Below, in pieces: positions 6,582 to 58,426 of a stretch of 64,000 bases of DNA. The stretch covers positions 10,579 through 74,578 of the forward strand of contig JAWXBP010000256.1 of the NCBI GenBank assembly GCA_034440135.1. The letters run 5' to 3'. The notes beneath the pieces were generated by a model. It made no database searches. It saw only the letters and a list, made by a program, of their open reading frames with translations, and was not told where the DNA came from. Each line of letters begins with the position of its first letter. The first letter of the stretch is position 1. The DNA comes from Planctomycetia bacterium. GTDB taxonomy: Bacteria > Planctomycetota > Planctomycetia > Pirellulales > JALHLM01. The translations under genes were made by a program, and so were the position numbers.

Positions 6582-6659
6582 GTCGCCAGTACCGTCAAAA
6601 AGTAGGAACGCGGAACGATGAACGGCAGAGAACTCCCTGCATTCGTCATTCGAGGTTCA

Positions 6660-7052
6660 TCATTTCCCTTTCCCCTTTTCCAACTCGTCAATCAGATCGC
6701 GGAATTGCTTCAACTCGGATTTCGAGAATCGCTTGCCTTGCACGAGCGCCAACACGAGCGGCGCCGAGGCGCCTTCGCAGAGCTCGCCCGCCAGATCGTT
6801 CAAACGATCGGCCAACAAATCGTCGCGCGAGACCGTCGGCCGATACACATGCGCCACGTCGCGCTTGTCGCTGGTGACGACCCCCTTCGCGCAGAGCCGA
6901 TTGAGCAGCGTTTGCACGGTGGTGTAGGCCCACTGCCGGCCGCGCGCCCCGAGGCGATCGTTTAACTCGCGGACCGTGCCTGGCCCTTCGTCCCAGAGCG
7001 CCTTGAGCACTTCGAGCTCCGTTCCAGAAATGCTCGGCCCCTTGTCGGCCAT
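6660..7052 (-). CDS. BlaI/MecI/CopY family transcriptional repressor
   Basis: ELEVLKALWDEGPGTVRELNDRLGARGRQWAYTTVQTLLNRLCAKGVVTSDKRDVAHVYRP is a penicillinase-repressor winged helix. The gene is 130 aa and first in the blaI-blaR1-type pair. Confidence 0.85.
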   Translation of the reverse strand: MADKGPSISGTELEVLKALWDEGPGTVRELNDRLGARGRQWAYTTVQTLLNRLCAKGVVTSDKRDVAHVYRPTVSRDDLLADRLNDLAGELCEGASAPLVLALVQGKRFSKSELKQFRDLIDELEKGKGK

Positions 7053-7546: not shown

Positions 7547-8953
7547 ATGCGATTCCTTCCGACCACAACGCTGGCGGCGTTGGGGCTGGCCTTCACGGTT
7601 CCGGCCGTAACTGCTTCCGCTGCAAATCCGGCCGATGACGGCGTCGTCATGGCTAGCGATGCTCCGGACGCCTCCTACGGCCAGGACTACGCCCAGCCGA
7701 CCGGCTATTCCACGCCGGTCCTGCCGATGGGCGCTGGCCCCGGACCGATCCACCCGTACTCCGCGGATGCGATGGATTGCTACGGCTGTCCGCCCAGTGG
7801 CAACGCCTTCGCCGAGGGCTGGCACGCGCCTCCGCAATGCAGTCGGGCGTGGGTCAACTTCGAATATCTCTATTGGCAGCCCAAGGGGATCAACGTCCCC
7901 GCGCTGGTCACCACCAGTCCGGTCCGCACGGCGCAAACGGTGGCCGGCGAATTAGGTCAACCGACCACGAGCGTGCTTTACGGCGACGGTGAAATCAACG
8001 ACGACTACCGCGCTGGCGGACGGTTGCAGGGCGGGTTCTGGCTCGCCCCGGATGAAATGGCCGGCATCGAAGGACATGTCTTCTCGTTCGACGACGAGCA
8101 ATCCGTGTTCACCGCCAACGGCTCGTTCAGCAATGGCGGCGCCGGGCCGATCCTGGCTCGACCGTTCTTCAACGTGGACAGTGCCCTGCAAGACACCTTG
8201 CTGCTGGCCTATCCGGACTTCGTCACGGGCAACCAGACCATCGACCTGGACGGCAGTGTCGACGTACGCAGCGAATCGGAGATTCAATCGGCGGGCGTCT
8301 TGTTCCGTCGGATTAGCTGGATGGACGTGCTCGATTCGAGCGGCGTGTCCTTCGTCCGCATCTACGGGTTGATTGGATACCGCTACTTCAATCTCGATGA
8401 GCAGCTCTCGATCGACAGCACAATCCGCCCCATCGGCGGCTCGTTCGGCAACAACAGCAGCGTGCGCTCCTCGGACCTGTTCGACACGGAGAATGAATTC
8501 CACGGCGGCGAATTGGGCATCGATACCCAAATCAACCGCGGTTCGTTCTTCTTGAAGATCTTAACCAAGGCCGCATTGGGCAACACGCATCAGACCGTGA
8601 ATATCGCCGGTTCGACCGTCAGCTCTGACGGCGTGAACTCGACGACTTTCGCGGGCGGTTTGCTGGCCCAGCCGACTAACATCGGCGAGATCACCAGCGA
8701 CCACTTCTCGGTGCTGCCGGAAGGCAACATCACGGTCGGCTGCCAGTTGACCCGCAACGTGGCGGTCACCGGCGGCTACAGCTTTCTGTACTTGAGCAAC
8801 GTTGTGCGACCGGGAGATCAGATCGACTTCTCGGTCAATCCGACGCAGTTCGACGGCGGCGTGTTGATCGGCGAGGCCCGACCCACGGCCTCGATCAATC
8901 ACGACGACTTTTGGATGCACGGCTTCAACGCCGGCGTCGAAGTCACCTGGTAG
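7547..8953 (+). CDS. BBP7 family outer-membrane beta-barrel protein
   Basis: Signal peptide (LAALGLAFTVPAVTASA), WVNFEYLYWQPKG motif, alternating beta-strand pattern, and a C-terminal aromatic end ...GFNAGVEVTW. Confidence 0.65.
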   Translation: MRFLPTTTLAALGLAFTVPAVTASAANPADDGVVMASDAPDASYGQDYAQPTGYSTPVLPMGAGPGPIHPYSADAMDCYGCPPSGNAFAEGWHAPPQCSRAWVNFEYLYWQPKGINVPALVTTSPVRTAQTVAGELGQPTTSVLYGDGEINDDYRAGGRLQGGFWLAPDEMAGIEGHVFSFDDEQSVFTANGSFSNGGAGPILARPFFNVDSALQDTLLLAYPDFVTGNQTIDLDGSVDVRSESEIQSAGVLFRRISWMDVLDSSGVSFVRIYGLIGYRYFNLDEQLSIDSTIRPIGGSFGNNSSVRSSDLFDTENEFHGGELGIDTQINRGSFFLKILTKAALGNTHQTVNIAGSTVSSDGVNSTTFAGGLLAQPTNIGEITSDHFSVLPEGNITVGCQLTRNVAVTGGYSFLYLSNVVRPGDQIDFSVNPTQFDGGVLIGEARPTASINHDDFWMHGFNAGVEVTW

Positions 8954-10215: not shown

Positions 10216-10282
10216 GGTGGGAACGGCCTGAGTTCGATTTCCAAATCGTGCGGCAGCGTTGTCAATTGGATCGCGACCGGAC

Positions 10283-11824
10283 TTAATCCTCCATGAAGCG
10301 ATCGAGCAGCTGAGTGTAAAGCGGATCTTGCGGCAGTTCCTCGTTGAGCTTGTCCAGGACTCCAGACTGATAGCGCCGAATCATTTGCGCCACTTCGTCG
10401 CCGACCGTGCCGTCTTCGGCCATTTTAGGATGGGCCGCGAACGCCGTCTTCCATTGCGCCAACGAGCCGGCGTAGTATTCCTTGGCCTGCTCCAAGTTGC
10501 CTTGCTCGACCGCCTGATCGGCGGCGTACGCGAGGCGGCGGGCTTCGATCGTGTCGTCCCGGATTTCCAATCGGCCGCGTTCACGCCAGTAATCGAAATT
10601 GATGACGCCGCGGAAATACTCGATCCCCATGATTTCTCGCTGCAATGCCGCGATCTTCTCGCCGACTTTCTTGCCTTCCGCGAGTTTATCCGCCGGCAGC
10701 CGTGGCGGGATTTCGTCGTAGTTCACAAAGATTTCGCTGATGGCGCTGGCCGCCAGTTGATACTGCTCCTGCGTCTTTTCTTCGTCGGGCGTTTTCAAGG
10801 CCTCTTGGCTTTCCTGCGAGAGCTTCAACAACTTTTCGTCCACAAGCTCCTGCCTGAGCCCCGGCTTCAAGGCGTCGAGCTCCGCCACAAGTTCGTTGAA
10901 CACGACCATCCGCGGTTCCCAATCGTTGAGTCGAACGTTGAGATCCACTTCCGAGACCAACGGGCGGTTGCCGTACTCGGTCCATTCGCGGCTGCCGTCT
11001 TCCCAGGCGCCCTTTGCGGCCGGGCCGAAGGCGCCGTCGACTTCGAGGGCCTCGGCGTAGTTGTGTTGCGCCATGGGGGCGCTGGAGAAGTATTGGAAAT
11101 CGGCCATGCCGATCAGATCGGCCGTGCCCTGGTCGATCATGTCGGCGCCGGCGACGTACCAGGCCTTGCCCATGAGCCAGTTGTCGCGCCGCCCGCGGTG
11201 AACGCCGCGGGCCTTGTCATCCGGGATGTTGGCGTCGAGAAAATCGAACAAATCGTCATTGCGATCGGCAAACAGCTTGCGGAATTCGCGGTGCTCGTCG
11301 GCGCGGCCGAGCTTCTGGCCGGTAAACCAACCCATGTCCCAGATCATCCGCGCTTCGCGCCGATTCTTGGTCGTCCCTTCATGCAGGAACTGGATGCCTT
11401 CCTTCACGCAGCGATAACGCTGCTTGAAATCGTCCCATTCGGCCGAGATGTTGTACGACAGATTCCAGGCCTGGTGGCGCCAGACGCCCGTGAAGTGCGG
11501 TTGCAGCTTGGACAGCTCTTCCAGCGTGACGCGCTGATCGTCCCACTGTTTGCGCTTCTCTTGCTCCTGCTTGCGGTGATAAAGCATGGTGATCGCCGGT
11601 GCGCGGAGGCCGAACATCACCAGCTTGACGCTTTCCGCCGTGGGATCGATCTCGCCCAGGCTGGCCTCGCTGATGTCGTTGTCCTTGCGCAACTCCGCCA
11701 GCACGCCGCCGCCGCTGCCGTCCGACTTCTTGGCCGGCATCCCGATCAGCGAGAGCGGCACCAACAAGAGCACGATCAGGCCCAGGTAGGTGACTTTGCG
11801 AAAAAACGCGGCACGAGGATTCAT
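10283..11824 (-). CDS. hypothetical membrane-anchored protein co-transcribed with the ABC transporter
   Basis: 513 aa with one N-terminal TM (VTYLGLIVLLLVPLSLIG) and a mostly helical, charged body. Its start overlaps the stop of the upstream permease gene by 4 nt (11821-11824). I recognise no family. Confidence 0.6.
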   Translation of the reverse strand: MNPRAAFFRKVTYLGLIVLLLVPLSLIGMPAKKSDGSGGGVLAELRKDNDISEASLGEIDPTAESVKLVMFGLRAPAITMLYHRKQEQEKRKQWDDQRVTLEELSKLQPHFTGVWRHQAWNLSYNISAEWDDFKQRYRCVKEGIQFLHEGTTKNRREARMIWDMGWFTGQKLGRADEHREFRKLFADRNDDLFDFLDANIPDDKARGVHRGRRDNWLMGKAWYVAGADMIDQGTADLIGMADFQYFSSAPMAQHNYAEALEVDGAFGPAAKGAWEDGSREWTEYGNRPLVSEVDLNVRLNDWEPRMVVFNELVAELDALKPGLRQELVDEKLLKLSQESQEALKTPDEEKTQEQYQLAASAISEIFVNYDEIPPRLPADKLAEGKKVGEKIAALQREIMGIEYFRGVINFDYWRERGRLEIRDDTIEARRLAYAADQAVEQGNLEQAKEYYAGSLAQWKTAFAAHPKMAEDGTVGDEVAQMIRRYQSGVLDKLNEELPQDPLYTQLLDRFMED

Positions 11825-13641
11825 TTCGCCAACTCACGCAATTTCAGGAAGAAGTAGCCGGCGACGGCAATCGGCACGAAGTACGCCACGGCGGCCGTCA
11901 ACTGCATCAGCATCGCGTCGCCGCCGATGTCGTAGCCGTTGGCCACCGCGCCGACATTATAGAACTGGGAAAAATCCGGCAGGATGTACGAGACCACGCG
12001 CAGAAATCTGTTCGCCACGTGATCGGCGCTCTTCACCACTTCCGTGCTGACCGTGGCGTCCAGTTGCTGCGTCAGGTTTTCCTGCTTGGCGATGCGAATC
12101 ATCGACTCGAACACGCCGCCGCCAAGGTTCTGCCCCGTGGCGATGTTGACCAGCATGTCCGTGAAGAAGCCCAGCACCAGACACCCGATGGTGGACAACA
12201 GCGACACGGCCGTATTAACGATCGTGCTCCACATCACGCCCACGGTGGTGGCGAGCACCATTTGGAACCAGATGCCCAGGCAGCCCTTGGCGTAGTTCCA
12301 AAGAAACGGCTGCTCGCCCGCCAGCAGGTACACGTCGTTGCGGCCCACGCCGAAATACTGCGCTGGCTCTTCGCAGGAGAGTTCCACGACAATTTGCCCG
12401 TCCCGAACGATGTCGCGGAACAGCTCCATCTCCTTGCCGTCGGCAGTGGTCCACTTGCGCGGAATATACTTGCGATCGGAGACGAATTCCTTCGCCGTGA
12501 AGAATTGCTCTTCCGCCTTGGCTTCCAGATTGCCGGGACGGTGGACTTGCAGGCTGCCGAGAATGCCGCGGGTGATATCGCCCTTATAGCTGCGGAACAC
12601 GCCGAGGTTCAGCTCGATCGGTACTCCCAGCGGATATTGATCTTCCGGGAACAATTCGGGGCGCAGCCCGCTGAAGGTGTAGATCGCCTTGGCCTGCGTG
12701 GCGCCTTCGATGAACTTGCGGTATTCCCATTCATCGCCGACGTTGACGCCGCCCCCTTCGCCGCCTTCGCGGGTCGTGAATTTCAAATCACCGATGATCG
12801 GCACACGTGCCTGAAACACGCCGAGCGGGCCAGTAACGGCGTAGGTCGCCGGAGCGTCTCCCTCGCCCGGCAGTAACGTGATTTCGTGGTAGTGACCGCG
12901 CTCGACCGAGGTGGCGCCGTGGCCTTCCTTGTCCAGCGAAAAATAGTGTGAATGGCCGCTGTCGTCGCGAATCGTGCCTTCGTAGCCGATCACGGCGCCG
13001 TCACGTTGATCGGTCAACGTGGTCACGGCCGTCGGATCGATCGAATGTCCGTGGGTCACGGCGCGGACGGCGAAGACATAGCCGATCAGCGAAGCCACGA
13101 CCAGCAGCGTCGTGCCGACGGTCGAAAAGCCAATGATCCGCCCCAGGATGATCTCACTCGCGCGCACCGGCTTGGTGACGATGGTATAGATGGTCCGCTG
13201 GGCGATATCGGTCGGCAAACTGAAAGCGCTTAAGAAGCAACACACGGCGATCACCAGCACCGCGGTGATGAACATCAGATAGTCGATGTAGGCGGTGACG
13301 GCGCGATCGCGCATGAACCAGGAGAGAAACATCACCGCCACGACGAACACGGCTAGCGCCACCAGCACCCAACGGCTGAGCGATTCTTGGATGGCCAGCC
13401 GCGCCAATGCGCCGACGCGTCGCGGTGAGATGCGGAACAGGTCGCCGGCGGCGTCGCGTAGCACGCCATACATCACGCGCTCGGTCCGCCACGGACCGTT
13501 CAGAATCGTGCCGATCAGGAACGAAGCGGCGACCACGACCAAGGCCAGGATGCCGACGACCATCACCCATTGCAGCGAAGCGCTGCCGATCCAGTCGAAG
13601 TACCGTAGCGGCGTGTTTTCAATCACGTAAGACAGCAACAT
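11821..13641 (-). CDS. ABC-2-type transporter permease with large extracytoplasmic insert
   Basis: Multiple TM helices, a TKPVRASEIILGRIIG motif typical of ABC-2 permeases, and a ~230-aa soluble insert. It lies downstream of the ABC ATPase on the same strand. Confidence 0.6.
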   Translation of the reverse strand: MLLSYVIENTPLRYFDWIGSASLQWVMVVGILALVVVAASFLIGTILNGPWRTERVMYGVLRDAAGDLFRISPRRVGALARLAIQESLSRWVLVALAVFVVAVMFLSWFMRDRAVTAYIDYLMFITAVLVIAVCCFLSAFSLPTDIAQRTIYTIVTKPVRASEIILGRIIGFSTVGTTLLVVASLIGYVFAVRAVTHGHSIDPTAVTTLTDQRDGAVIGYEGTIRDDSGHSHYFSLDKEGHGATSVERGHYHEITLLPGEGDAPATYAVTGPLGVFQARVPIIGDLKFTTREGGEGGGVNVGDEWEYRKFIEGATQAKAIYTFSGLRPELFPEDQYPLGVPIELNLGVFRSYKGDITRGILGSLQVHRPGNLEAKAEEQFFTAKEFVSDRKYIPRKWTTADGKEMELFRDIVRDGQIVVELSCEEPAQYFGVGRNDVYLLAGEQPFLWNYAKGCLGIWFQMVLATTVGVMWSTIVNTAVSLLSTIGCLVLGFFTDMLVNIATGQNLGGGVFESMIRIAKQENLTQQLDATVSTEVVKSADHVANRFLRVVSYILPDFSQFYNVGAVANGYDIGGDAMLMQLTAAVAYFVPIAVAGYFFLKLRELAK

Positions 13642-15502: not shown

Positions 15503-16615
15503 TCAGGCCCCACGTCGCAGGAGCGCCGCATACAGTTGATGAATAAACGCCGCGTTATCGCATTGCAAATACTGCATGGAGCCCCCCATGCGTGAATAAC
15601 TTTTGCAGAAGCGGAGATAGTATGCAGGGTTGGATTTCGGCGGCTCTCCGTGAGTCCAATCCCAGCCGCCGCCGTCTTGTAAGTCGACGACGAAGATCGA
15701 TTGCCGGGTGAGGACCTGACGACCTTCCTGCAACCGCAGATTGTTCACGCAGCTCACCGTCTTCTCAAACACCTGCGGGCCCATGATCGCGGAGCCGACC
15801 GAGAGGACCACGCCGTCGTCCAGACCGGCGACCGATCCGGCGAAGAGCTTGAAGTCCCATTCCGCGGCGCGGCCGATCGCCGAGCCGCTGAACACCGAAT
15901 GGTTCGAGATGATGTCGTAGCCGATCCCCGGATGCACTGTCACCGGAACGCCATGGCGATACGCCTGGGCGATGATCGACGCGTGCTTCCAGCGATGCTC
16001 GATGGTGATCCGCCCGGCCGGCCATGCTTGTTCGCGCATCGCCCGCAACAAATCCGCGCGCGCCGAAGTGAGCGGATGCTCCGGATCGCGTGCAATCGCT
16101 TGCGTCAGCGCGTCGGCTTCCGGCAGCGTCACGCCATCCTCATGAATCAAACGCCCGAGCGCCCGCCCGTAGCCGAGTCCGTCCTGTGCGCCGGTCAAGA
16201 TCGCCAGATGAATGTTGGTGGCTGTCTCATGCCAGGTTCCAAATGTGCCCGAGGCCACGTTCATTTCGACGCTCTCGGTCGACGCGCCGAACCAGGCGTA
16301 CTCCCAATCGTGAATGGTTCCCGCGCCGTTCGTGGCCAAATGCGTCAGCCAGCCGCGCGCCATCATCCGCTCCAAAATCTGTGCGGCGCCGTTCCTCAAT
16401 AGGTGCGCGCCGTAGATCAGCATGATCGACGCTTCCCGCTCCTGGGCGAAGAGAATCCGCTCGGCGCATTGGTCGATCGTCGCTTGATTGGCCGCGGACA
16501 CCGGCTTCGGCGGCGACGCGGGATCGACCAGAATGTCATCCGCGCGTGTCAGATGATGCCGATCCTTCAGCGGAAAGACCTTGAGTTTGCGCAGATCGAG
16601 CGGCTGGATATTCAT
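15503..16615 (-). CDS. deoxyhypusine synthase-like (DHS family) protein, tentative
   Basis: IMLIYGAHLLRNGAAQILERMMARGWLTHLATNGAGTIHDWEYAWFGASTESVEMNVASGTFGTWHET resembles bacterial DHS-like family proteins as I recall them. No alignment was possible. Confidence 0.5.
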   Translation of the reverse strand: MNIQPLDLRKLKVFPLKDRHHLTRADDILVDPASPPKPVSAANQATIDQCAERILFAQEREASIMLIYGAHLLRNGAAQILERMMARGWLTHLATNGAGTIHDWEYAWFGASTESVEMNVASGTFGTWHETATNIHLAILTGAQDGLGYGRALGRLIHEDGVTLPEADALTQAIARDPEHPLTSARADLLRAMREQAWPAGRITIEHRWKHASIIAQAYRHGVPVTVHPGIGYDIISNHSVFSGSAIGRAAEWDFKLFAGSVAGLDDGVVLSVGSAIMGPQVFEKTVSCVNNLRLQEGRQVLTRQSIFVVDLQDGGGWDWTHGEPPKSNPAYYLRFCKSYSRMGGSMQYLQCDNAAFIHQLYAALLRRGA

Positions 16616-26124: not shown

Positions 26125-27033
26125 ATGGACGCGGTGATCAGACTCGACCATGTCACCAAGAGTTTCGGATCGCAGACGGCGCTCCATCAGGTGTCGCTGG
26201 AAGTGCCGCCGGGCGTGGTGTGCGCGCTGCTGGGAGAAAACGGCGCTGGCAAGACAACCGCCATTCGCATCATGCTCGGGCTCACCGAGCCGGACGCCGG
26301 TTCGTGTCACGTGCTGGGGATGTATAGCAAGGAACACGGCGAGGAGATTCGCCGATCGGTCGGCTACGTGTCGGAGCGGCCGACGCTGTACGAGTGGATG
26401 ACGGTCGGCGAAATCGGTTGGTTCGCCGCTGGCTTCTATCCGCCCGGCTACTTAGCGCGGTACCAGGGACTGATCGCCCAATTCGGTTTGCCCGCCGATC
26501 GCAAGATCAAGACGCTGTCGAAGGGAACTCGTGCCAAAGTCGCGCTGTCGCTGGCGATGGCGCATGAACCGCGGTTGTTGATTCTCGACGAACCGACGTC
26601 GGGGCTCGATACCTTGGTGCGGCGCGAATTCCTGGAGAGCATGGTCGACCTGGCCGCCGACGGGCGAACCGTGCTGCTGTCGAGCCATCAGATTAGCGAA
26701 GTGGAACGCGTCGCCGACGTCGTGGCAATTCTTCATGAAGGCCGATTGGTACTCTTCGAACGGCTGGAAGAGTTGAAGAAACAAGTCCAGGAGCTGACGA
26801 TCACGCTCGCGGAAGGAATCGGCGCGCCGCCGGACGTGGGCGGGGAGATTCTCCGGCGCGCCGGCAAACTGCGCCAGTGGCAGGTATTAATTCGCGGACC
26901 GGTGAACGGACAGGTCGACCGGCTGCGCAGCAATCCGATGGTGCGACAGGTCGAGGTGCGCACGCCGGCGCTAGAGGAAATCTTCGTCGCCTACCTGGCT
27001 TCTAGCGGCGCCTCGCAGGGAGGTGAACAATGA
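26125..27033 (+). CDS. ABC transporter ATP-binding protein
   Basis: Start MDAVIRLDHVTKSFG lies 1 nt after the GntR stop. Walker A LLGENGAGKTT, signature LSKGTRAKVALSLAM, Walker [13 protein letters not shown]. Confidence 0.9.
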   Translation: MDAVIRLDHVTKSFGSQTALHQVSLEVPPGVVCALLGENGAGKTTAIRIMLGLTEPDAGSCHVLGMYSKEHGEEIRRSVGYVSERPTLYEWMTVGEIGWFAAGFYPPGYLARYQGLIAQFGLPADRKIKTLSKGTRAKVALSLAMAHEPRLLILDEPTSGLDTLVRREFLESMVDLAADGRTVLLSSHQISEVERVADVVAILHEGRLVLFERLEELKKQVQELTITLAEGIGAPPDVGGEILRRAGKLRQWQVLIRGPVNGQVDRLRSNPMVRQVEVRTPALEEIFVAYLASSGASQGGEQ

Positions 27034-29591
27034 CGCCCATCTGGCATGTCGCCTGGAAAGAGTACCGGTTGCTGCGCAGTCTGTGGTTGACATTCTTCGC
27101 GCTGGCGATGCTGCTGCAGGTCACGGCGCTCATGTCCGTATCGCGGTCATATGCTTCGTCGCGAGAGTTTGTCACGGTCCTGTTCGCGCTGACGGTTTGG
27201 CTGCCGGCGTTCTATGCGCTAGGCTGTGGCGCGACGATGTTTGCGGCCGAGAAAGACGATGGAACGTATGAATGGCTCCGCGTGCTGCCCATCGACGGAC
27301 TGCGCGTGTTCGCCGGCAAGCTGCTGTTTGCCGTGCCGAGTACGGGGCTATTGTTTTTGGCGGTGGTGTTGATCACGCGCTCCTTTGGACGCGGCGTCAT
27401 GCCGCCCGACGAGATCACGCGTCAGTTGTGCGGAGCCTGGGGCGTCGCGGCGCTGGAGGCATTGGCCTGGGGGGCGTTGATATCACTCATCTCGCGCCGA
27501 CCGTTGCTCTCGGCCGTCATCGCTGCGGCCGTCGGTTCAACCGTGACGCACATGATCGTTGCCAGTTTCGTCGACAAGTTCTGGACGCTGGAGGCCTACA
27601 CGTCCGCGCTGCCGGCGCGATTGGTCATCGTGGCCGTGGTGTTTGCCGTCGACCTGATCTTGGCGCGCGGGTGGTTGGCGAATCCGCGCCCAGCGCGCGT
27701 TCGGTCCCAACCCATTCAGAACGTTGTGCGGCGCAGTTCTACGACGGGTTTGGGACCGCGTTGGCGGCGTATCCTACGTTTGTGCTGGCAGGATTGGCGG
27801 CAGTCGCGGCGCGCGGTCGCAGGGTATTGCGTGGTCGCGGTGATCGCTGGTTTCGTAGTCGGACGATTTCTGATATTCGGCTTGTCGGTTGGGTCCGCCG
27901 CGATGCTGGCCGCCGCGTCGCTCAGCGCGTTTCTTTGCACGTTGGTGGGCGCCACGACGTTTCGCGGCGACCACGAAGACAGCCACTATCGATTCTTGGC
28001 CGAACACGCGATTTCACCGCGCGACGTCTGGTGGGCGCGCGAGCTATTCTGGGGAACGGTGGCGCTGATTTGTGGATTGGCATGTATTCTGGCGGTGTTC
28101 GCGTGGAACACCTCCTTAGGCACGCACTCTTACGCCAGGTCGCAGATTCTTGAGTCCGCGATTCCAGATAGCTTGTTGGAAGCAATGTTTTGCTACCTCG
28201 CGCTCCCCTTCATCGCCGGACAGTTCGCGTCGTTGTTGTTGCGAAGTCCCCTCTTGCCGGCGACTGCCGGAATCGCGCTCGCCGGCGCGCTGATGGCCTG
28301 GGCGATGCTCATGGCGCAGCTATCGATCGCGTGGTGGTGGACGGTCCTCCCGCTCGCCGTGGCGCTGCTGATTGCCACACGGATGCGTCTGAGCGACTGG
28401 CTGACCTATCGAGACGGCTGGCGAAAATGGCTGCGCATCGCCGGAACCGTGCTCGTGCCGATCGCACTCGTCGCAGCAGGCGTGATCTGGTTTCGCGTGC
28501 ATGAGATTCCCGCGGTGGTCAATGGCGTCGCCTTGACGGGCGATCCGTTTGACCTCGCCGACTACGACCGGATGGCGACCGAGGAGGAGAACAAGACGGC
28601 GTTGCTTTATGTCGAGGCGTGGAACAGCTATCACGATTACGCGCTGGATGCACCTCCGGCAGTTGTCATTCCAACGGCCGCTTACGCACCCAATGCAAGG
28701 GTATTGGCCGCGGAGCGCCGCGGAATACTCGAACTAAACGCGGAGCCGCTCCAATGGATGCTGAGCGCGACGCAGCGCGCAGATTGCGTGTTGCGGCGGC
28801 CGAGTTCGGCAAGTCTCATTGACATGCCCGGAGTGGCCAAGGAGGCCAATAAGCTGGCTGGTTTGTTGATCGTCGCTGGCCAACTGGCGGAGCACGACGG
28901 CAAGCTCGACGAGGCGCTGGACTACTATTTGCGCGCGCGCCGTTTCGCACAGCACATCGCGCGGTTCGGTAACCACTCCCAATGTCTCCAAGCAGCGTTA
29001 GTCGACAACCTGGCGACGAACGCCATTGTCACTTGGGCGGACCGCCCAGGTCAGTCAAATGAGTTATTGGAACGCGCATTGGAGGCGGTGCGTTCAAAAC
29101 GAATGGTTGATTTGTTGGCCGACGCGCCTAAGACAGAGTACCTGATGACGCGGCGAGCGATCGAATCGGGCAGTTTCGACATGCCTGCGTCGATTTCGCC
29201 GAGAGTCGACGCAGTCCGGATTGCCTCGGCCGGGGCCAGTCGTTTTCCCTGGGAGCGAGCACGACAACTTCGCTTGCTGCGGCTCGCCACGTATTGGGCG
29301 ATGCATTTCCCGCAAGGGTCAACCGCAAATCTCAATATCAACACTCCCTGGGCCTGGCTGCGACGAGAACCGCTCAGCAGTCGTCCGAATCAAGCCTTGC
29401 GCCAATTGATTGGTGACTCGTCGTATGCCCAACACTTGGTGCCAACGTTCGAATCGTTCGAGACTTGGGCCGGCGGCACTTATGTCAATGCAGAACACCA
29501 CCTGCAGAACGCGATCGAACGGACGCGCTATGGTACGAACGCGCCGTCGACGCCATTCGCGGAACCTGACAGCGAAGGCTTTGCCGACTAA
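27030..29591 (+). CDS. large polytopic membrane protein (ABC-2-like permease region fused to a ~370-aa C-terminal soluble domain)
   Basis: 4-nt overlap with the ATPase stop. About 12 predicted TM helices over the first ~480 aa, then a helical-repeat-like soluble region. I recognise no family for the C-terminal part. Confidence 0.6.
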   Translation: MTPIWHVAWKEYRLLRSLWLTFFALAMLLQVTALMSVSRSYASSREFVTVLFALTVWLPAFYALGCGATMFAAEKDDGTYEWLRVLPIDGLRVFAGKLLFAVPSTGLLFLAVVLITRSFGRGVMPPDEITRQLCGAWGVAALEALAWGALISLISRRPLLSAVIAAAVGSTVTHMIVASFVDKFWTLEAYTSALPARLVIVAVVFAVDLILARGWLANPRPARVRSQPIQNVVRRSSTTGLGPRWRRILRLCWQDWRQSRRAVAGYCVVAVIAGFVVGRFLIFGLSVGSAAMLAAASLSAFLCTLVGATTFRGDHEDSHYRFLAEHAISPRDVWWARELFWGTVALICGLACILAVFAWNTSLGTHSYARSQILESAIPDSLLEAMFCYLALPFIAGQFASLLLRSPLLPATAGIALAGALMAWAMLMAQLSIAWWWTVLPLAVALLIATRMRLSDWLTYRDGWRKWLRIAGTVLVPIALVAAGVIWFRVHEIPAVVNGVALTGDPFDLADYDRMATEEENKTALLYVEAWNSYHDYALDAPPAVVIPTAAYAPNARVLAAERRGILELNAEPLQWMLSATQRADCVLRRPSSASLIDMPGVAKEANKLAGLLIVAGQLAEHDGKLDEALDYYLRARRFAQHIARFGNHSQCLQAALVDNLATNAIVTWADRPGQSNELLERALEAVRSKRMVDLLADAPKTEYLMTRRAIESGSFDMPASISPRVDAVRIASAGASRFPWERARQLRLLRLATYWAMHFPQGSTANLNINTPWAWLRREPLSSRPNQALRQLIGDSSYAQHLVPTFESFETWAGGTYVNAEHHLQNAIERTRYGTNAPSTPFAEPDSEGFAD

Positions 29592-29763
29592 CCCTGCCCG
29601 CGAAATCGAGCGCTCTAGCAGGGCGCCGCGCACATTGACTGCACGGGAACCTTGTTTCTAACGGCCATGGCCGGTGCTTTTAACGCTGATGCCTGACCGC
29701 GCCGCATCTCAGGCGAATCAGCCGTCAGCCAAGCACTCACCCTGCGGACGGACGGCAGGCATA

Positions 29764-32700
29764 CTAAGCGTCATATTCCGGCGAAGCCACAAAGGCCGAT
29801 ACGACTTGCTCCTCGCGCATTCCGCGCGAGAGCAGGTCGGCGTAGAAATCAACCTCGCCGGCGCTGGCCGAGCGATCCAGCAGGGCGTCGTAGATGTCGG
29901 TGACTTTCTTGTTCTGCGCCTCGTCGGTTGCCAGCAGCCGTTTGGCGACGGTGTCGCGATCTTCGTTGCGCAGCAATCGCCCGAACTCGCTTTGGCCAAC
30001 GGGGTCGATGGCGCGACCCATGACGTCGCGGTAGAGGGCCGCCAAGAATGCGTTCGCCGAACCGCCGGCGCGGCGATAATACTCGTTCGATCCCAGGAAC
30101 GTCGTGCGCAGACCGTCCCACGTGCCGCCAGCGGCAAGATATGTGAGGTGGGCGCTCAGGCCGGCCGTGTCGCTGCCGCGGCCTAGGTACTTCTGGTACA
30201 TGGCCTGAATCTGCCGCGTGCGGTACTCGATGCTATTTTGCATCGCCGTAGCCATCTGGAATTCGTTCATCCGGCCGTCTTCGAGTTGATCGGCGTAGAA
30301 CTGCAATCCAGCGTCTTCCGGCTCGCGCCCGAGCAGATCCTCGTAGGCTTGCGTGACCAGCGATTCGGTCGGCGTTTCCTGGATCTCTGTGATCCGGACC
30401 GTCGCAGTGGACGGCGTTCCCAGCGTGCCGCCGCCGCCCGGGGCGCTGAGCGTGAGCGTGAACGTCTCTTCTTGCTCCAACACCGCGTCGACCAGGATCG
30501 GCACGGTGAGGGTCTTCTGCGTCTCGCCGGCGGCGAATGTCAGCGTGGCGCTGGCAGTCGTGTAATCGCTGCCGGCCGTGGCTGCGCCGTTGCTCGTGGC
30601 GTATTGAACCGTCACGCCCGCCGCGTCGCCGCCTGTCCGGGTGACTGTAATCGTCACCGTGCCAGCCGCTTCGTCGACGGTATAGCTCGTTGCGCTGAAC
30701 TGCAGCGCCCCGGGTCCGTCGTCGTCGGTGATGGTGACCGTTCCGGTGGCCGTGCCGAGCGTGGAATTCGTCGGCGCGGAAAGCACGACGGTAAACGCCT
30801 CGCTCGATTCCGTCGCGGCGTCGACCGCGATCGGCACGCTGATGGTCTTCGAGGTTTCCCCCGCGGCGAACGTCAGTGTGCCGGAAGTGGTGGTGTAGTC
30901 CCCCGGCGCTGTGGCCGTGCCGTTCTGCGACTGGTACGCAACCGTAACCGCCTGGCTGCTCGGGTTCGAGAGCGTCACCGTCAACGTCGCGTTGACCGTA
31001 CCGGAGTCCCCTTCGGTGACCGTCGTGCCGGCGATCGACACGGTTGGCAATGGATCGTCGTCGGTAATCGTGCCGGTCGCCTGGGCGTCAGCGAGCGTGG
31101 CATTCACTGGCGCGGACAGGTCCAGCTCGAAGGTCTCGTTGGGCTCGTCGGTGGTGTCGCCGACGATCGGCACGCTGATGGTCTTGGACGTCTCGCCGAT
31201 GGCGAACGTCAGCGTGCCGGAAGTCAACGTGTAGTCGGTTCCGGCTGTCGCGGTGACGTTATCTGTGGCGTAGTTCACGGTCACCACGTTGGTCGCCGCG
31301 GCCGAGAGCGTGACCGTAAACACCAGGTTCGATTGACCGCTATTCCCTTCGGCGATCGAGACGTCCGACACGCTTGCCGTTGGCGGCGGCGCGTCGGCCT
31401 TGCCGGTGACCGTGATGCGGACCGTCGCGATGTCTTGCCCGCCTTGGCCATCGCTTACCGTGTAGGTGAACGCATCTTCGAGCGTCTGGCCTTCGTTCAA
31501 CGCGCCGAGGATCGCCGACGCGCGGGGATCATATGCATAACTACCGTTTGCATTGACGACCACCGTGGCGCCTTGCGCACTCACGGCGTCGAAGGCCGTG
31601 ACGGTCAACGTGTCGGACGCGTCCGGATCGGTGTCGTTCGTCAGGACCCCGGGCGCCGCGATGCTCAATGCCGTATCTTCGTCCGTAGCGCCGGTGTCGT
31701 CCGTCGCCCCGGGCGGGTCGTTGGTCGTCGTGACGGCCACGGTGAACGATTGCGTCCCGGTGTTCCCCGCGGCGTCGACCGCTTGCACCGTGACGCTCGC
31801 GTTGCCGAGTTGTGCAGCGCTCGGCGTCCAACTGATGACGCCGGTGTCCTGGTTGATCGTCATGCCGGCCGGGGGCGTGGCTAGCAGGTAGGTCAGCCCT
31901 AGGACGCTTTCGTCCGCCGATTGCACGTCGTAGCTGTAGGCGACGCCCACCGAGGCCGCCGTCACCGCGGCGGACGAAATCACCGGCGTCGTCGCGTCGA
32001 TCGTGATCGATTGGGCCGGTGAGGCGTCGCTGACGCTGCTGCCAATTTGCTGCGTGGCCGTCAGGCTGATGGCGCCGTCGGCCAAGGGGACAGTGCCGTT
32101 GGTGATGATGTCGACCGTGCCGCCGCTGGCAGTTCCGGTTCCGATCAGCGTCGCACCAGCGAATACGTTCACCGTGGCGCTATCAATCACACCGCCCACG
32201 CGCAAGCGCAGGGCATGCGCAGCGTCGGTGTTATTGAAATTGGTCAGGTTGTCCGTGCTCGAACCGCCGGAATCGGCCTCGGGCAGCAGGTCGATCGACG
32301 TCGGCGGACTTGGCCGTGCATTGTCCGTCAGCGCGTCGACGAACATCTGTTTCAGCGTGGCATAGTTCGCGACGTTCGCCAGCGAGTTATTCGTCAGGTT
32401 ATAGACGTCGGTGACGACATTGGCGGCATTCAGGATCACCACGTCGCGCCATTCGATCTCCCAACTCGTCCAAACATCCGAGTTAAGGTCAGAGTTCGCG
32501 TCGACGTCCTGGACAATCGGTAAGTCTTCGTCGATCAGATCGAAATCGGCTTCCTGCCCCTCTTCGTTCACGCCCAGGATATTGACCTGCTGCAACGGGA
32601 ACATCGCGCGCAGTTCCGATTGCATTTGCTCCAGGAAGCCAAACTGGCTTCGGCAGTAGCTTCACGTCGTGTGGATGAAATACCAGCCGGAAACCTGCTG

Positions 32701-32907
32701 GAGGTACTCGCGCGGCGAGATCGTATCGCCGAACTGGTCGGAGTTCAGATTCTGGTCGACCAATTGAAAGTCCGGCATCTGCACGCCGATCGTGGCGAGC
32801 ACTACGCGGGCTTCCAGCCGCTCGACGCCAGCACCGCTGTGCAGCGCCGCCTCGACCCGGGGTCGCCAGGCGTTCCCCATTCGATTCCGCGACTTCCGCC
32901 AAGACAT
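29764..32907 (-). CDS. giant secreted protein: N-terminal thioredoxin-fold (redoxin/TlpA-like) domain, cadherin-like/VCBS, 4x Calx-beta and 3x DUF4214; interrupted by one in-frame TGA at 32662-32664 (Sec candidate or pseudogene)
   Basis: The track ORFs 32662..32907 (81 aa) and 29764..32625 (953 aa) share one frame. Only a TGA plus 12 sense codons separate them. The joined sequence reads ...QQVSGWYFIHTT[TGA]SYCRSQFGFLEQMQSELRAMFPLQQVNILGVNEEG.... Calx-beta repeats match (TAGTDYTLTSGTLTFAIGETSKTISVPIVGDTTDEPNETF, four times). The VCBS-like segment is (TNDPPGATDDTGATDEDTAL...LTNDTDPDASDTLTV). DUF4214 repeats match (YEDLLGREPEDAGLQFYADQL, three times). The N-terminal VERLEARVVLA motif is shared with other planctomycete secreted proteins. 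Confidence 0.75.
32635..32651 (-). promoter_or_regulatory. candidate bacterial SECIS stem-loop (or fortuitous hairpin) 10 nt 3' of the in-frame TGA
   Basis: The mRNA reads UGA AGCUACUGCC GAAGCCA-GUU-UGGCUUC. This is a perfect 7-bp stem whose apical loop starts with G. Confidence 0.4.
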
Positions 32908-33203
32908 GCGTGTGACCGTTTCTGCTGCGAATAGAACTGCCTCGACCGTGCGACGTCCGGCGCGCCCGGCAGTTGGACCGCGGGGACGTCGTCAAAGTTC
33001 CAGACTAACGCGCGCGGCCGGAAATTCCCACCAATTTGCCCGACTTCCTCAACCGGCAACGCCGTGGGAAGGTCCTGCATACGCGTCACGTGCGCGTTTT
33101 TAACGCCCGGAGTGATTATAGCGCCTGCCACCCCTGGGGAAGGCGTGTAGAATTCGGCGAAGCGTCAAGAAGCCATTTCGGAGGGGCCTCCGTCCCCCGC
33201 TGT

Positions 33204-33233
33204 AAACTGAACACTGAAAACTTCAAACTCCCC
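33204..33233 (-). repeat. Family E module 1 (E3)
   Basis: AAACTGAACACTGAAAACTTCAAACTCCC, 10 nt upstream of the MBL hydrolase ATG. Confidence 0.8.
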
Positions 33234-33243
33234 CACTATCCGC

Positions 33244-34263
33244 ATGGCCGAACTGCCCCCCGTCGAGATGTTCGTTTCCAGCACCGGGGTGCGCATCTAC
33301 CGGATTCCTTGCGAGGCGTTCCCCAACTTCATTGTGTATTGCCACCTATTGCTGGGGGATTTGCCGCCCACGCTCATCGACACTGGCAGCGGCTATGGGG
33401 CCTCGAACAAACAACTACTCGCCGGCCTGGAGGCTGTCCATACCCAGTTCAACGAGGCCTTTCGCGTGGCGGACCTGGCGCGGATCGTGATCAGCCACGG
33501 CCACATCGATCACTTCGGCGGGCTGTCCCACCTCTTGGAGCACGTGCAGGCCGAGGTCGCCGTCCACCCGCTCGATCGCCGCGTGTTGACACATTACGAG
33601 GAGCGGCTGATCGTCGCAACGAAGAATGTGCGGTTCTATCTGCAACAGGCGGGCGTTTCGGCCGAGATGCAGGAAGTGCTGATTGGGACGTATCAGTTCT
33701 CGAAGAAACATGTGCGTAGCGTGTCCGTCGAACGAGAACTTCGCGACGGCGACGAATTGGACGGACTCCGCTACATTCACACGCCCGGCCATTGCTCCGG
33801 GCAACTGTGCATCGGCGTGGGCGATATCCTGCTCAGCACCGATCACATCCTGCCCGGCATCAGCCCGCACCAATCGCCGGAAAGCATCACCGCTTTCACG
33901 GGGCTGGCGCATTACCTGGAATCGCTCGACAAGGTCGCGCGCATCGGCGGGTTCGATCTCGCCCTGGGCGGCCACGAGGGTCCGACGCGGGACGTCTACC
34001 GCCGGATCGAAGCAATCCGCGCCGGGCACGAGCGCAAACTGGAACGCGTCTCGAACATCATCCGCGACGCCCCCGCGCCGCCGACCGTGCAGGAAATCAC
34101 GCACACGATGTATCCCAAAGTGCAAGGCTTCGACGTGCTGCTGGCGCTCGAAGAAGCCGGCGCGCATGTGGAGTACCTCTACCAGCACGGCCGGCTGGAA
34201 GTCACGAACTTGGATGAAGTGGAGCGCGAGGACAACCCGCCGTTGCGCTACGCGGTGGCTTGA
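33244..34263 (+). CDS. MBL-fold metallo-hydrolase
   Basis: HxHxDH motif VISHGHIDHFGG, then later HTPGHCSG and a C-terminal helical domain. Confidence 0.8.
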   Translation: MAELPPVEMFVSSTGVRIYRIPCEAFPNFIVYCHLLLGDLPPTLIDTGSGYGASNKQLLAGLEAVHTQFNEAFRVADLARIVISHGHIDHFGGLSHLLEHVQAEVAVHPLDRRVLTHYEERLIVATKNVRFYLQQAGVSAEMQEVLIGTYQFSKKHVRSVSVERELRDGDELDGLRYIHTPGHCSGQLCIGVGDILLSTDHILPGISPHQSPESITAFTGLAHYLESLDKVARIGGFDLALGGHEGPTRDVYRRIEAIRAGHERKLERVSNIIRDAPAPPTVQEITHTMYPKVQGFDVLLALEEAGAHVEYLYQHGRLEVTNLDEVEREDNPPLRYAVA

Positions 34264-48187: not shown

Positions 48188-50023
48188 GTGTCCCTCTCCA
48201 CGGATGATCGGGAACGGGTGCGGCAGGCGATCGACATTGTCGATCTCGTCGGCGGCTACCTCCCGTTGCGCCGCGAGGGACGCCACTTCAAGTGCCTCTG
48301 CCCTTGGCACGACGACAGTCGGCCGAGCTTGTTCGTCAATCAGGAGCGGCAAAGCTACAAGTGCTTTGTCTGCAACCTGGGCGGCGACATCTTCAGCTTC
48401 ACGATGAAGATGGAAGGGCTGGAGTTTCCCGAGGCACTTGAATTCCTCGCCGAGAAGGCCGGCCTCACGCTGGAGCGCCGCCGCAGCGGCCCTTCGTCCG
48501 ACGACAAGAAGACGCTGCTGCAGATCATGGCCTGGGCCGAGCAGCGCTATCACGATTGCTTGCTGAAATCATCCTCTGCGCAAATCGGTCGCGACTACTT
48601 CGAGGGTCGTGGCATCACGCCCGAGAGCATTGACCGATTCAAGCTCGGCTTCGCTCCCGAAGAATGGGACTGGCTGCTCACGCAATCGCGCGATACGCGA
48701 TTCAGTTCCGCGCAGTTGGAACGCGTCGGACTGGTCCGCGCCCGTCAAGGCGGCGGCGGCCACTACGATTGGTTCCGGAACCGCATGCTGTTTTCGATCC
48801 GCGATTCGCAGGGCCGTCCCGTCGGCCTGGGCGGACGCGTGTTGCCGGGTCCGGATGCCGACAAGACCGCCAAATACATCAATTCGCCCGAGACGCCGCT
48901 CTTCTCGAAGAGCCAATTGCTCTACGGGCTGGACCTGGCACGGGAGTCGATCACCAAATCGCGTACCGCGCTGGTGATGGAAGGCTACACCGACGTCGTC
49001 GTGGCGCACCAATGCGGCTTCCAGAACGCCGTCGCCGTGCTCGGCACGGCTCTGGGCGAAAGCCACGTCCGCTTGCTCAAACGCTTCGCAGACCGCATCG
49101 TGTTGGTGCTCGACGGGGATGAAGCGGGTCGCAAACGGGCCAACGAGATTCTCGACTTGTTCATGGGTGAGCAGATCGATCTCCGCGTACTGACCTTGCC
49201 CGGCGAGCTCGATCCCTGCGACTTTTTGCTCCAGCAAGGCGCCCCGGCGTTCCAAGAACAAATCGAGCGTGCCATCGACGCGGTAGAACACAAATTCAAT
49301 GTCGTCGCGGCAGGCCTTTCCGGTCGTGGCACGCACGAAGTGCAGGCCGCGCTCGAAGATTTGCTGACCACGCTGGCAAAATCGCCTCACGCCAGCGGCG
49401 AGGTGGGCAGCGCCGCGATGCTCAAGCAAGAACACATTCTGCAGCGCGCCTCGCACCGCTTCGGCGTGTCGGAAGCGCAGCTACGGGCGCGGCTTGGCTC
49501 GTTGCGACATGGTAAACCCGCGCGCCCGGCGCGCGTCGTCGCCGAGGCGCCGACGGTGGAAGCCGCCGTGGCGTTTGGCGATATCGACGAGTGGGAACGC
49601 GAGCTGATGGAGTTGCTGCTCGTCGCGCCCCAGACGTTGCCCGAGGTTCTGCACGAAGTGCGGCCGGAGCAATTCGCCGTCGGCCCATTGCGTGAACTTT
49701 TCTCGCGGGCCTGCGTCCTCGTGGCCTCGGGGAGATCGTTCTCGTTCGCGGAATTGATGATTCAAATCGAGGAACCGGAATTGAAGAGCGTGCTGGTCGA
49801 CCTGGACGAGCATGCCCAGAAAAAGAGTCACGCCGACGCCGCGAAGTTAGTGCGGCAGGTGTTGGAAAGTTATCGTCTCCGGCACGAAGGCAGGCACATG
49901 CGCCAACAAGTGCATGAGCTGCGCGAGGGCCGCATCGATGAAGAAAGGGGGTTGCAACTGTTGCGACAAAGGATTGAAAGCGGGCGAAGTCGCCAGGGCA
50001 TTTCCGCACCCACGGACGGGTAG
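48188..50023 (+). CDS. dnaG: DNA primase
   Basis: Zinc ribbon [36 protein letters not shown] and TOPRIM region ([10 protein letters not shown]...[13 protein letters not shown]). The GTG at 48188 has GGAG 9 nt upstream. The track start (TTG 48182) is too close to that SD. Confidence 0.9.
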
Positions 50024-50142
50024 GATGCGTTGACGGCTGGTCGCGGTTTCCCCGTACGGTCGCTGGTCCCAGCCGGCGACTCGTGACCGTGATCGCACTT
50101 CGACATGCTGAGCGCCATGAGGGCGCGGGAGGAAAGCACGAC

Positions 50143-51813
<1,671 letters not shown>

Positions 51814-51846
51814 CCTTTCGCCCGTTGTAAACCTGTTTTCCAATAA

Positions 51847-51875
51847 AGCCTCACCGTCCGGTGGGGCTTTTTCTT
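51847..51875 (+). terminator. rho-independent terminator after rpoD
   Basis: AGCCTCACC-GTCC-GGTGGGGCT (9 bp including one G-U pair) followed by TTTTCTT, 34 nt after the rpoD stop. Confidence 0.7.
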
Positions 51876-51900
51876 GCGCGGATAGGTAGAATCGAAGTGT

Positions 51901-52164
51901 ATGGAACCGACGAGCTTCGACCTGACCGACCCTTGGCATTCGCATCTGTACTTTGCAATTGACTGCGCGTGCGACTGCTGCGACCGCCGCGTCGATTTTC
52001 AATGGTTCTGGGATAGAGTCGAGGGCGAAGGCGAAGAGCGCGTTGAGCGATGGTCGGTGCTCGTCGCAGAGGCTGTTCGAACGGATGGCTGGAGAATTCT
52101 TGACGATGGCGTTTTTTGCCCAGAATGCTCGAGGCGACGTCTCGCATCACGGCCGGAGGTATAG
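51901..52164 (+). CDS. small Cys-rich (zinc-ribbon-like) hypothetical protein
   Basis: 87 aa with DCACDCCDRR near the N-terminus and CPECSRR near the C-terminus. Confidence 0.35.
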   Translation: MEPTSFDLTDPWHSHLYFAIDCACDCCDRRVDFQWFWDRVEGEGEERVERWSVLVAEAVRTDGWRILDDGVFCPECSRRRLASRPEV

Positions 52165-54406: not shown

Positions 54407-54506
54407 GGAGTTTGAAATTCTCAGTGGTCAGTTTTCAGTGATTGCGAAGCAGCACATTCTGCCGCTACTCCACCTACTTACTACTCCACCTACTTCCCAC
54501 TTCCTC
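54407..54506 (+). repeat. Family E composite element (E6)
   Basis: GGAGTTTGAAATTCTCAGTGGTCAGTTTTCAGTG starts 6 nt after the TGA at 54399-54401, followed by CTACTCCACCTACTTACTACTCCACCTACTTCCCACTTCCTC. It abuts the stop of the convergent gene at 54505. Confidence 0.9.
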
Positions 54507-58416: not shown

Positions 58417-58426
58417 GTCTCCGCGC

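Follow-up and report, generated by a model that had tools for sequence, protein, structure and literature searches.

The prototype of the bacterial selenocysteine insertion sequence (SECIS), that of Escherichia coli fdhF, lies within the coding sequence directly downstream of the UGA, and has a bulged U and a longer lower stem. In the published consensus model, bacterial SECIS (bSECIS) elements have a loop of 3-9 nt and an upper stem of 4-16 bp (PMC13188914, Fig. 2 legend), with G in the first two loop positions followed by G or U, a spacing of 16-37 nt between the UGA and the apical loop, and a minimum free energy at or below -7.5 kcal/mol (PMC13188914). The same review of prokaryotic selenoproteomes describes canonical peroxiredoxin (Prx) selenoproteins as TxxU forms, with selenocysteine (Sec) as the C-terminal residue of the motif, and places UxxC forms among the Prx-like thiol:disulfide oxidoreductases (PMC13188914). 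Closest to the protein considered here is the NCBIfam family NF053656.1 (redoxin_TUGYCR, "TUGYCR motif thioredoxin fold (seleno)protein"), which is already curated as a selenoprotein family by NCBI; no paper on "TUGYCR" or describing this family was found in the literature searched, and the accession is absent from the table of the above review, published in 2026 (PMC13188914). Here we describe a gene on the minus strand of a 64,000-nucleotide stretch of a Planctomycetia bacterium (contig JAWXBP010000256.1; this whole stretch is hereafter called the window), in which a TUGYCR-type domain is interrupted by an in-frame TGA and followed by a large adhesin-like tail.

In public data such genes are split by gene callers, and recognising the recoding restores a protein of 1047 residues. 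As the first-pass annotation of the window had pointed out, an 81-codon open reading frame (ORF; 32907 to 32665) and a 953-codon ORF (32625 to 29764) lie in the same minus-strand frame, separated by a TGA (32664-32662) and 12 sense codons (S Y C R S Q F G F L E Q) that precede the ATG at 32625. An exact-sequence look-up of the 953-residue product of the second ORF returned no record. Read through, the context is ...VSGWYFIHTT-TGA-SYCRSQFGFLEQMQ..., with WYFIHTT-TGA-SYC-RSQFGF as its core. We are highly confident that the gene encodes one protein and not two fragments, with the UGA recoded as Sec by means of a downstream hairpin and with a redox domain that is exported. The parts of the gene are as follows.

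29764..32907, minus strand: complete predicted selenoprotein gene of 1047 codons plus stop, with ATG at 32907, the putative Sec-UGA as codon 82 and TAA at 29766-29764; the frame is unbroken except for the single TGA
32779..32907, minus strand: N-terminal leader, residues 1-43, containing VERLEARVVLA, a degenerate form of the planctomycete "LExLExRxLL" extracellular-protein motif
32662..32664, minus strand: UGA codon 82, predicted to be read as Sec, the N-terminal redox residue of T-U-S-Y-C-R; TGA is also found at this codon in 56 distinct homologous loci
32635..32651, minus strand: candidate bacterial SECIS-type hairpin GAAGCCA-GUU-UGGCUUC with a 7-bp stem and the apical loop GUU, starting 10 nt 3' of the TGA
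32332..32778, minus strand: TUGYCR-type thioredoxin-fold redox domain (NCBIfam NF053656.1), residues 44-192
29764..32331, minus strand: adhesin-like tail, residues 193-1047, with He_PIG, cadherin-like/Big_9, three Calx-beta and four DUF4214 domains (Pfam scan)

The redox domain scores 187.7 bits against NF053656.1 (cutoff 100) and covers profile positions 1-146 of 146, and the window gene is thus a further member of this known family. It shares with the family the T-U-x-Y-C-R motif and the alternation of Sec and Cys among relatives. In comparison with the motif in the family name, the window protein has Ser in place of Gly (T-U-S-Y-C-R), as do the homologous loci L019, L024, L034, L041-43 and L050. 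Most of the members found are lipoproteins, dockerin proteins or PEP-CTERM proteins of 150-400 residues, whereas the window protein has 1047. What is new here is hence the joining of a Sec redox centre to a large adhesin-like scaffold in a Pirellulales lineage, while the domain family and the SECIS geometry are known; the result offers an entry point to an unstudied exported selenoprotein family, but would be no surprise to a selenoprotein specialist.

The hairpin downstream of the UGA

The hairpin was found exactly as the first-pass annotation had drawn it, with a perfect 7-bp stem that begins 10 nt after the TGA (32651 to 32635) and a loop that starts with G, and it is the sole element retained in the centroid fold, at -10.2 kcal/mol. 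The combination of TGA and hairpin exceeds chance expectation: perfect 7-bp hairpins with loops of 3-5 nt occur 68 times in 128 kb (both strands of the window), and such a hairpin starts 6-15 nt downstream of only two of the 1670 TGA triplets in the window. The claim that the element has the general geometry of bacterial SECIS elements was also borne out, since all four constraints of the published bSECIS model fit the window hairpin, which has a loop of 3 nt on a stem of 7 bp, a loop start of G-U, an energy of -10.2 kcal/mol and a UGA-to-loop spacing of 17 nt (10 nt of spacer plus 7 nt of stem).

Like the fdhF prototype, the window hairpin is located within the coding sequence directly downstream of the UGA; in contrast to it, this is a short perfect mini-hairpin that has neither the bulged U nor the longer lower stem. 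The loop and the inner pairs are encoded by the protein-conserved codons for Q-F-G, which leaves freedom to co-vary to the outer four pairs alone. A SECIS as compact as this (17 nt, with its loop fixed by the Q-F-G codons) would provide a system for studying how coding constraints and RNA-structure constraints overlap.

Homologous loci and covariation

A first protein search returned two relatives, P0001 and P0002. In P0001 the residues C-S-Y-C align exactly with TGA-S-Y-C of the window, and P0002 starts right after the site, its contig (L001) having an in-frame upstream ORF of 81 codons and a TGA at the same codon. The L001 hairpin, GUAGCCA-GUU-UGGCUAC, differs from that of the window by a compensatory change from A-U to U-A. 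A three-sequence profile run against the species genomes of GTDB and the metagenomes of JGI gave 66 more loci. The first-pass annotation had proposed asking whether orthologues carry Cys or TGA at this codon; when the loci were translated, the aligned codon proved to be TGA in 56 distinct ones, drawn from independent assemblies, and TGT (Cys) in a small number (L002/L052, L063-65 and L066). By the labels of their metagenome-assembled genomes (MAGs), the TGA forms come from Pirellulales, Pirellulaceae, Lacipirellulaceae, Phycisphaerae, Planctomycetaceae, Polyangiaceae/Myxococcales, Krumholzibacteriota, Acidobacteriota, Verrucomicrobiales and others. At the protein level, P0001 and P0003-P0012 have CSYC, CGYC or CNYC at the site. 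Two loci depart from both forms: L059 has TAC (Tyr; codon at about 1631), giving M-Y-S-Y-C, and the UxxC motif is lost in L044 (10001-10447); both may be derived family members that are inactive or of a one-Cys type. A further locus, L045, turned out to encode an unrelated SCO-like protein.

A second profile search returned 215 proteins, with at least about 15 full-length Cys forms among its matches. About 100 of the 120 relatives listed cover only the part after the TGA, under the names "dockerin type I domain-containing protein" or "hypothetical protein", indicating that their gene calls are truncated and that the family is systematically mis-annotated. Two of the relatives, P0020 and P0042, have the C-terminal sequence ...VSPRDYxxQVSG(W/Y)YFxxAT. 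This corresponds to the first half of another TUGYCR domain, truncated at a TGA of its own, and shows that in some members of the family two such domains occur in tandem. In P0020 a He_PIG linker is followed by the second TUGYCR domain, and this protein probably has two Sec codons, while P0042 probably has one degenerate site and one Sec site. Together these searches outline a selenoprotein family that has been little studied, occurs widely in Planctomycetota, Myxococcota and several candidate phyla, and appears to be exported throughout.

Covariation of the hairpin was scored against the 7-bp stem in an ungapped alignment of 53 distinct Sec-form sequences. In this alignment 95.7% of the cells are paired, compared to 29-41% in controls in which the partner was slid by 1-3 columns. 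Compensatory changes were observed at five of the seven pairs (pair 2, for example, occurs as U-A, A-U, C-G and G-C), with double-sided changes in 54 cells, and the covariation score of 0.476 was reached by none of 500 shuffles, which scored 0.150. All 56 Sec forms considered, a mean of 6.7 of 7 pairs is kept, the mean energy of the 17-nt hairpin is -8.35 kcal/mol, and 53 have GUU as their loop. In the Cys and Tyr forms, by contrast, 3-4 of the 7 pairs are kept, only those dictated by the conserved Q-F-G codons. Covariation of the hairpin in TGA forms and its loss from Cys forms thus answer the question on orthologues that the first-pass annotation had raised, and comparison across the family indicates that the hairpin is tied to Sec, the stem having no counterpart in the Cys and Tyr forms. 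The residues on either side of Q-F-G are encoded by the outer stem of the putative SECIS and co-vary at the protein level as a result, for example R(CGA) with F(UUC), S(AGU) with Y(UAC), G(GGU) with H(CAC) and R(CGC) with R(CGC), so that the RNA structure leaves its mark on the amino acid sequence.

Two of the homologous loci share the full architecture of the window gene. The closest, L003 from a Pirellulales MAG (JALHLM010000165), is identical at 965 of 1047 residues over its full length (92%), has the same TGA and conserves the start codon (MSWRK..), and L004 from the MAG CAZUBB01, with 789 of 1047 identical residues and the same architecture, has the same TGA too. Between the window gene and L003 there are more synonymous than non-synonymous changes before the TGA (15 versus 7), in the rest of the domain (25 versus 8) and in the tail (232 versus 65), and both sides of the TGA are thus under purifying selection. 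The reading of the in-frame TGA as a genuine Sec codon, put forward as a candidate in the first-pass annotation, is strongly supported by these sequence comparisons: the conserved TGA, the co-varying hairpin, L003 and the NCBIfam (seleno)protein model all agree.

The redox domain, its predicted export and alternative readings

The only Pfam match of the N-terminal 200 residues is to AhpC-TSA (PF00578), and the redoxin/TlpA-like thioredoxin fold first proposed for them needs a qualification, as this match spans the whole profile (positions 1-122 of 124) but at 22.1 bits is below the gathering score of 26. Some homologues carry precomputed PF00578 matches, and one has been named "peroxiredoxin" by JGI. 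A search of the Protein Data Bank (PDB) by sequence gave marginal matches only (E = 0.45). We therefore turn to P0005, a Cys homologue with 51% identity to the window domain, whose AlphaFold model, computed from an alignment of 79 sequences, has predicted local distance difference test (pLDDT) values of 96-98 over the domain and places CGYC right before a helix (40-59) and after a strand (29-35). In a Foldseek comparison of this model with the PDB the top matches were ResA, a Geobacter thioredoxin, DsbE, Etrx1/2, StoA and CcmG (E about 1e-7, target-normalised template modelling (TM) scores of 0.65-0.80, identities of 12-20%), with SCO1 and AhpE lower in the ranking. The domain is accordingly modelled as a ResA/TlpA/CcmG-like extracytoplasmic thiol-disulfide oxidoreductase fold.

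With ResA, TlpA, CcmG (DsbE) and Etrx the domain would share the extended thioredoxin fold and a redox pair at the N-terminus of helix alpha-1, as judged from the P0005 model, but it would have Sec in place of the first Cys, and the TUGYCR loci are without neighbouring cytochrome c maturation genes or CcdA/DsbD. Going by the description of the Prx-like thiol:disulfide oxidoreductase selenoproteins (UxxC, PF00578; PMC13188914), the domain also resembles these in its UxxC motif within a thioredoxin fold of the AhpC/TSA type and in being a predicted, functionally uncharacterised selenoprotein; the window domain differs in falling below the PF00578 threshold and in having a separate NCBI model. 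Residues invariant across the TUGYCR family are F47, D51, N53, S56, S64-P65, W75-Y76-F77, U82, C85, Q88-F89-G90, Q96, N114, P130, Q133, W149 and R154-D155, which places conserved positions on both sides of codon 82.

We propose that the hairpin acts as a bacterial SECIS, for which the comparative evidence is strong, once the ribosome arrives at the UGA of codon 82, and that it would recruit SelB-GTP-Sec-tRNA(Sec), so that Sec is inserted and termination avoided. Going by the fold and the position seen in the Cys homologue, the Sec would be the exposed N-terminal residue of the U-x-x-C pair at the start of helix alpha-1, in a redox domain displayed at the N-terminus of a He_PIG/cadherin-like/Calx-beta/DUF4214 scaffold. 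A selenenylsulfide/selenol-thiol cycle would be the most likely chemistry, leading to thiol-disulfide oxidoreduction or to the reduction of an oxidised substrate outside the cytoplasm.

That the protein acts outside the cytoplasm is suggested mainly by its relatives. The leader motif VERLEARVVLA aligns with IESLESRRVLA of L004 and LEKLEARQLL of L001, and the planctomycete members in general have an LExLExRxLL start, usually followed by dockerin repeats. The corresponding Pfam model, PF07595 (Planc_extracel), matches P0003 above threshold (29 bits) and L004 and L001 below it (19.9 and 18.3 bits). In members from Myxococcota, Krumholzibacteriota and other groups the signal peptides are of the lipoprotein or the classical type, and one member has a PEP-CTERM anchor. 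The TUGYCR family as a whole hence looks extracytoplasmic, and the export of the window protein is predicted from these relatives.

The Pfam scan recovered the cadherin, Calx-beta and DUF4214 domains that had been named for the giant adhesin-like protein, plus He_PIG (E-values of 1.4e-64 for Calx-beta, 1.2e-26 for DUF4214, 3.9e-19 for Big_9, 2.2e-15 for Cadherin_4 and 1.3e-13 for He_PIG). Among the loci examined, this giant tail occurs only in the window, L003 and L004, the latter two also being Pirellulales MAGs; the fusion of a Sec domain to an adhesin is thus uncommon within the family, as had been expected, but not unique to the window. A wider picture, which we rate as slightly less likely than not, can be put forward tentatively: the TUGYCR domain may be a surface or extracellular single-Sec enzyme, carried in this Pirellulales lineage on a Ca-binding adhesin scaffold of about 850 residues and elsewhere on dockerin, PEP-CTERM or lipid tethers, and may represent an uncharacterised class of external selenol catalysts that would act on extracellular substrates or surfaces without a dedicated neighbouring electron-donor gene, some of them with two tandem Sec domains.

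Several results weigh against an exported selenoprotein made by SECIS-directed recoding. The 71-nt segment around the hairpin, taken as a whole, is no more stable than its shuffles (z = 0.12), and the case for the hairpin hence rests on the local stem and on covariation, with the comparative evidence being decisive; a scan of the whole window with Rfam at gathering thresholds matched no family. No selA, selB or selD was found in a Pfam scan of 39 ORFs of the 64-kb window, which holds ordinary chromosomal genes only, and ARAGORN detected no tRNA at all in the window, and hence no tRNA-Sec. In the flanks of 45 related loci, where the check was for tRNA only, ARAGORN likewise found no tRNA-Sec. 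Several other Planctomycetes have been reported to possess the complete Sec machinery (PMC4807772), which nevertheless makes the Sec trait plausible for the lineage of the window. The N-terminus of the window protein has no classical hydrophobic signal peptide and no match to PF07595 at E<=10, so that of the secretion-type N-terminus claimed in the first-pass annotation only the degenerate LExLExRxLL motif remains. No conserved partner gene, including CcdA or DsbD, recurs in the neighbourhoods of about 60 loci. Finally, the position before the strand "DVVIL" is occupied by R154-D155 and not by Pro, which, by motif comparison, suggests that R154 sits at the cis-Pro site of ResA/TlpA in the manner of the catalytic Arg of peroxiredoxins.

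This Arg, conserved at 98%, also speaks for a reading in which Sec is indeed inserted but serves a selenol-based peroxidase, peroxiredoxin- or glutathione peroxidase (GPx)-like, and not a thiol-disulfide oxidoreductase. The sole Pfam match, to AhpC/TSA, and the presence of AhpE and SCO among the fold matches point the same way, the former being sub-threshold in the window and precomputed in several homologues. However, the best structural matches are the ResA, DsbE, TlpA-like and Etrx reductases, and it is the TxxU arrangement, not UxxC, that is found in canonical Prx selenoproteins (PMC13188914). Moreover, the protein lacks the PxxxTxxC peroxidatic motif: relative to C85, I78 is found where Pro is expected (Gly in the family) and U82 where Thr is expected. 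We consider a peroxidase unlikely on this evidence, though a serious contender, and prefer the thiol-disulfide oxidoreductase.

Far less probable is a decoding of the UGA as a standard amino acid (Trp, Cys or Gly), by near-cognate read-through or by reassignment, with the hairpin as a generic stimulator of read-through. Downstream hairpins can stimulate read-through in other systems, and the window, as stated above, is devoid of Sec machinery. Against this, TGA is the normal stop of 8 of the 26 Pfam-supported genes in the window, which rules out genome-wide reassignment. Furthermore, the site aligns only with Cys (and one Tyr) at the nucleophilic position of CxxC, which is the classical Sec/Cys signature, the hairpin geometry and the G-U start of the loop fit the SelB-type bSECIS model, and the NCBI curators class the family as a selenoprotein.

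The remaining alternative, that a recent TGC/TGT to TGA nonsense mutation or a miscalled base has split a Cys redoxin-adhesin gene, would need a single base change, could draw on the existence of Cys forms in the family (L002, L063-66) and would agree with the split gene calls in public data, but is so improbable as to be set aside, as the same TGA recurs in 56 distinct loci across independent assemblies and phyla, L003 at 92% identity has it together with an excess of synonymous changes on both sides, and the co-varying hairpin is confined to TGA forms.

Other genes in the window

The window is a piece of ordinary chromosome, with genes for PolA, DnaG, RpoD, RibD, a FabF-like protein, a BBP7 porin, an ABC transporter and QueC among others. 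The porin gene and the 92% identity of the Pirellulales MAG locus L003 are together consistent with an origin of the window in Pirellulales. A promoter and terminator scan of 29500-33300, around the selenoprotein gene, gave matches at chance level only, and across the neighbourhoods of about 60 related loci the sole recurrent "neighbour" was an artefact, an antisense ORF overlapping the gene itself. A scan of the window for other in-frame TGA candidates yielded none that was convincing. One off-frame TGA at 59767 on the plus strand (...RGDRF-TGA-GYCVGHG) resembles a UGYC motif, but it was rejected as a chance look-alike that has no hairpin and overlaps a 455-residue ORF in another frame.

A second predicted secreted-type protein in the window is the 657-residue ORF at 54505-56478 (minus strand), whose N-terminus, ...RRMEALEPREMLSVAP, is of the LExLExRxLL type and which contains DUF4214 and pectate-lyase-like domains. 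No Pfam match at E<=1e-5 was obtained for the ORFs of 370-853 residues at 10259-13641, 15503-16615, 27030-29591, 49870-52002 and 56983-59794; the ORF of 853 residues, which lies downstream of an ABC ATPase, is probably its permease. At 4641-7052 (minus strand) a BlaR1-type M56 peptidase sensor of 646 residues adjoins a BlaI/Penicillinase_R repressor of 130 residues. The ORF at 7547-8953 (plus strand) encodes a BBP7 beta-barrel porin (PF07585, 342 bits), a family described from Rhodopirellula.

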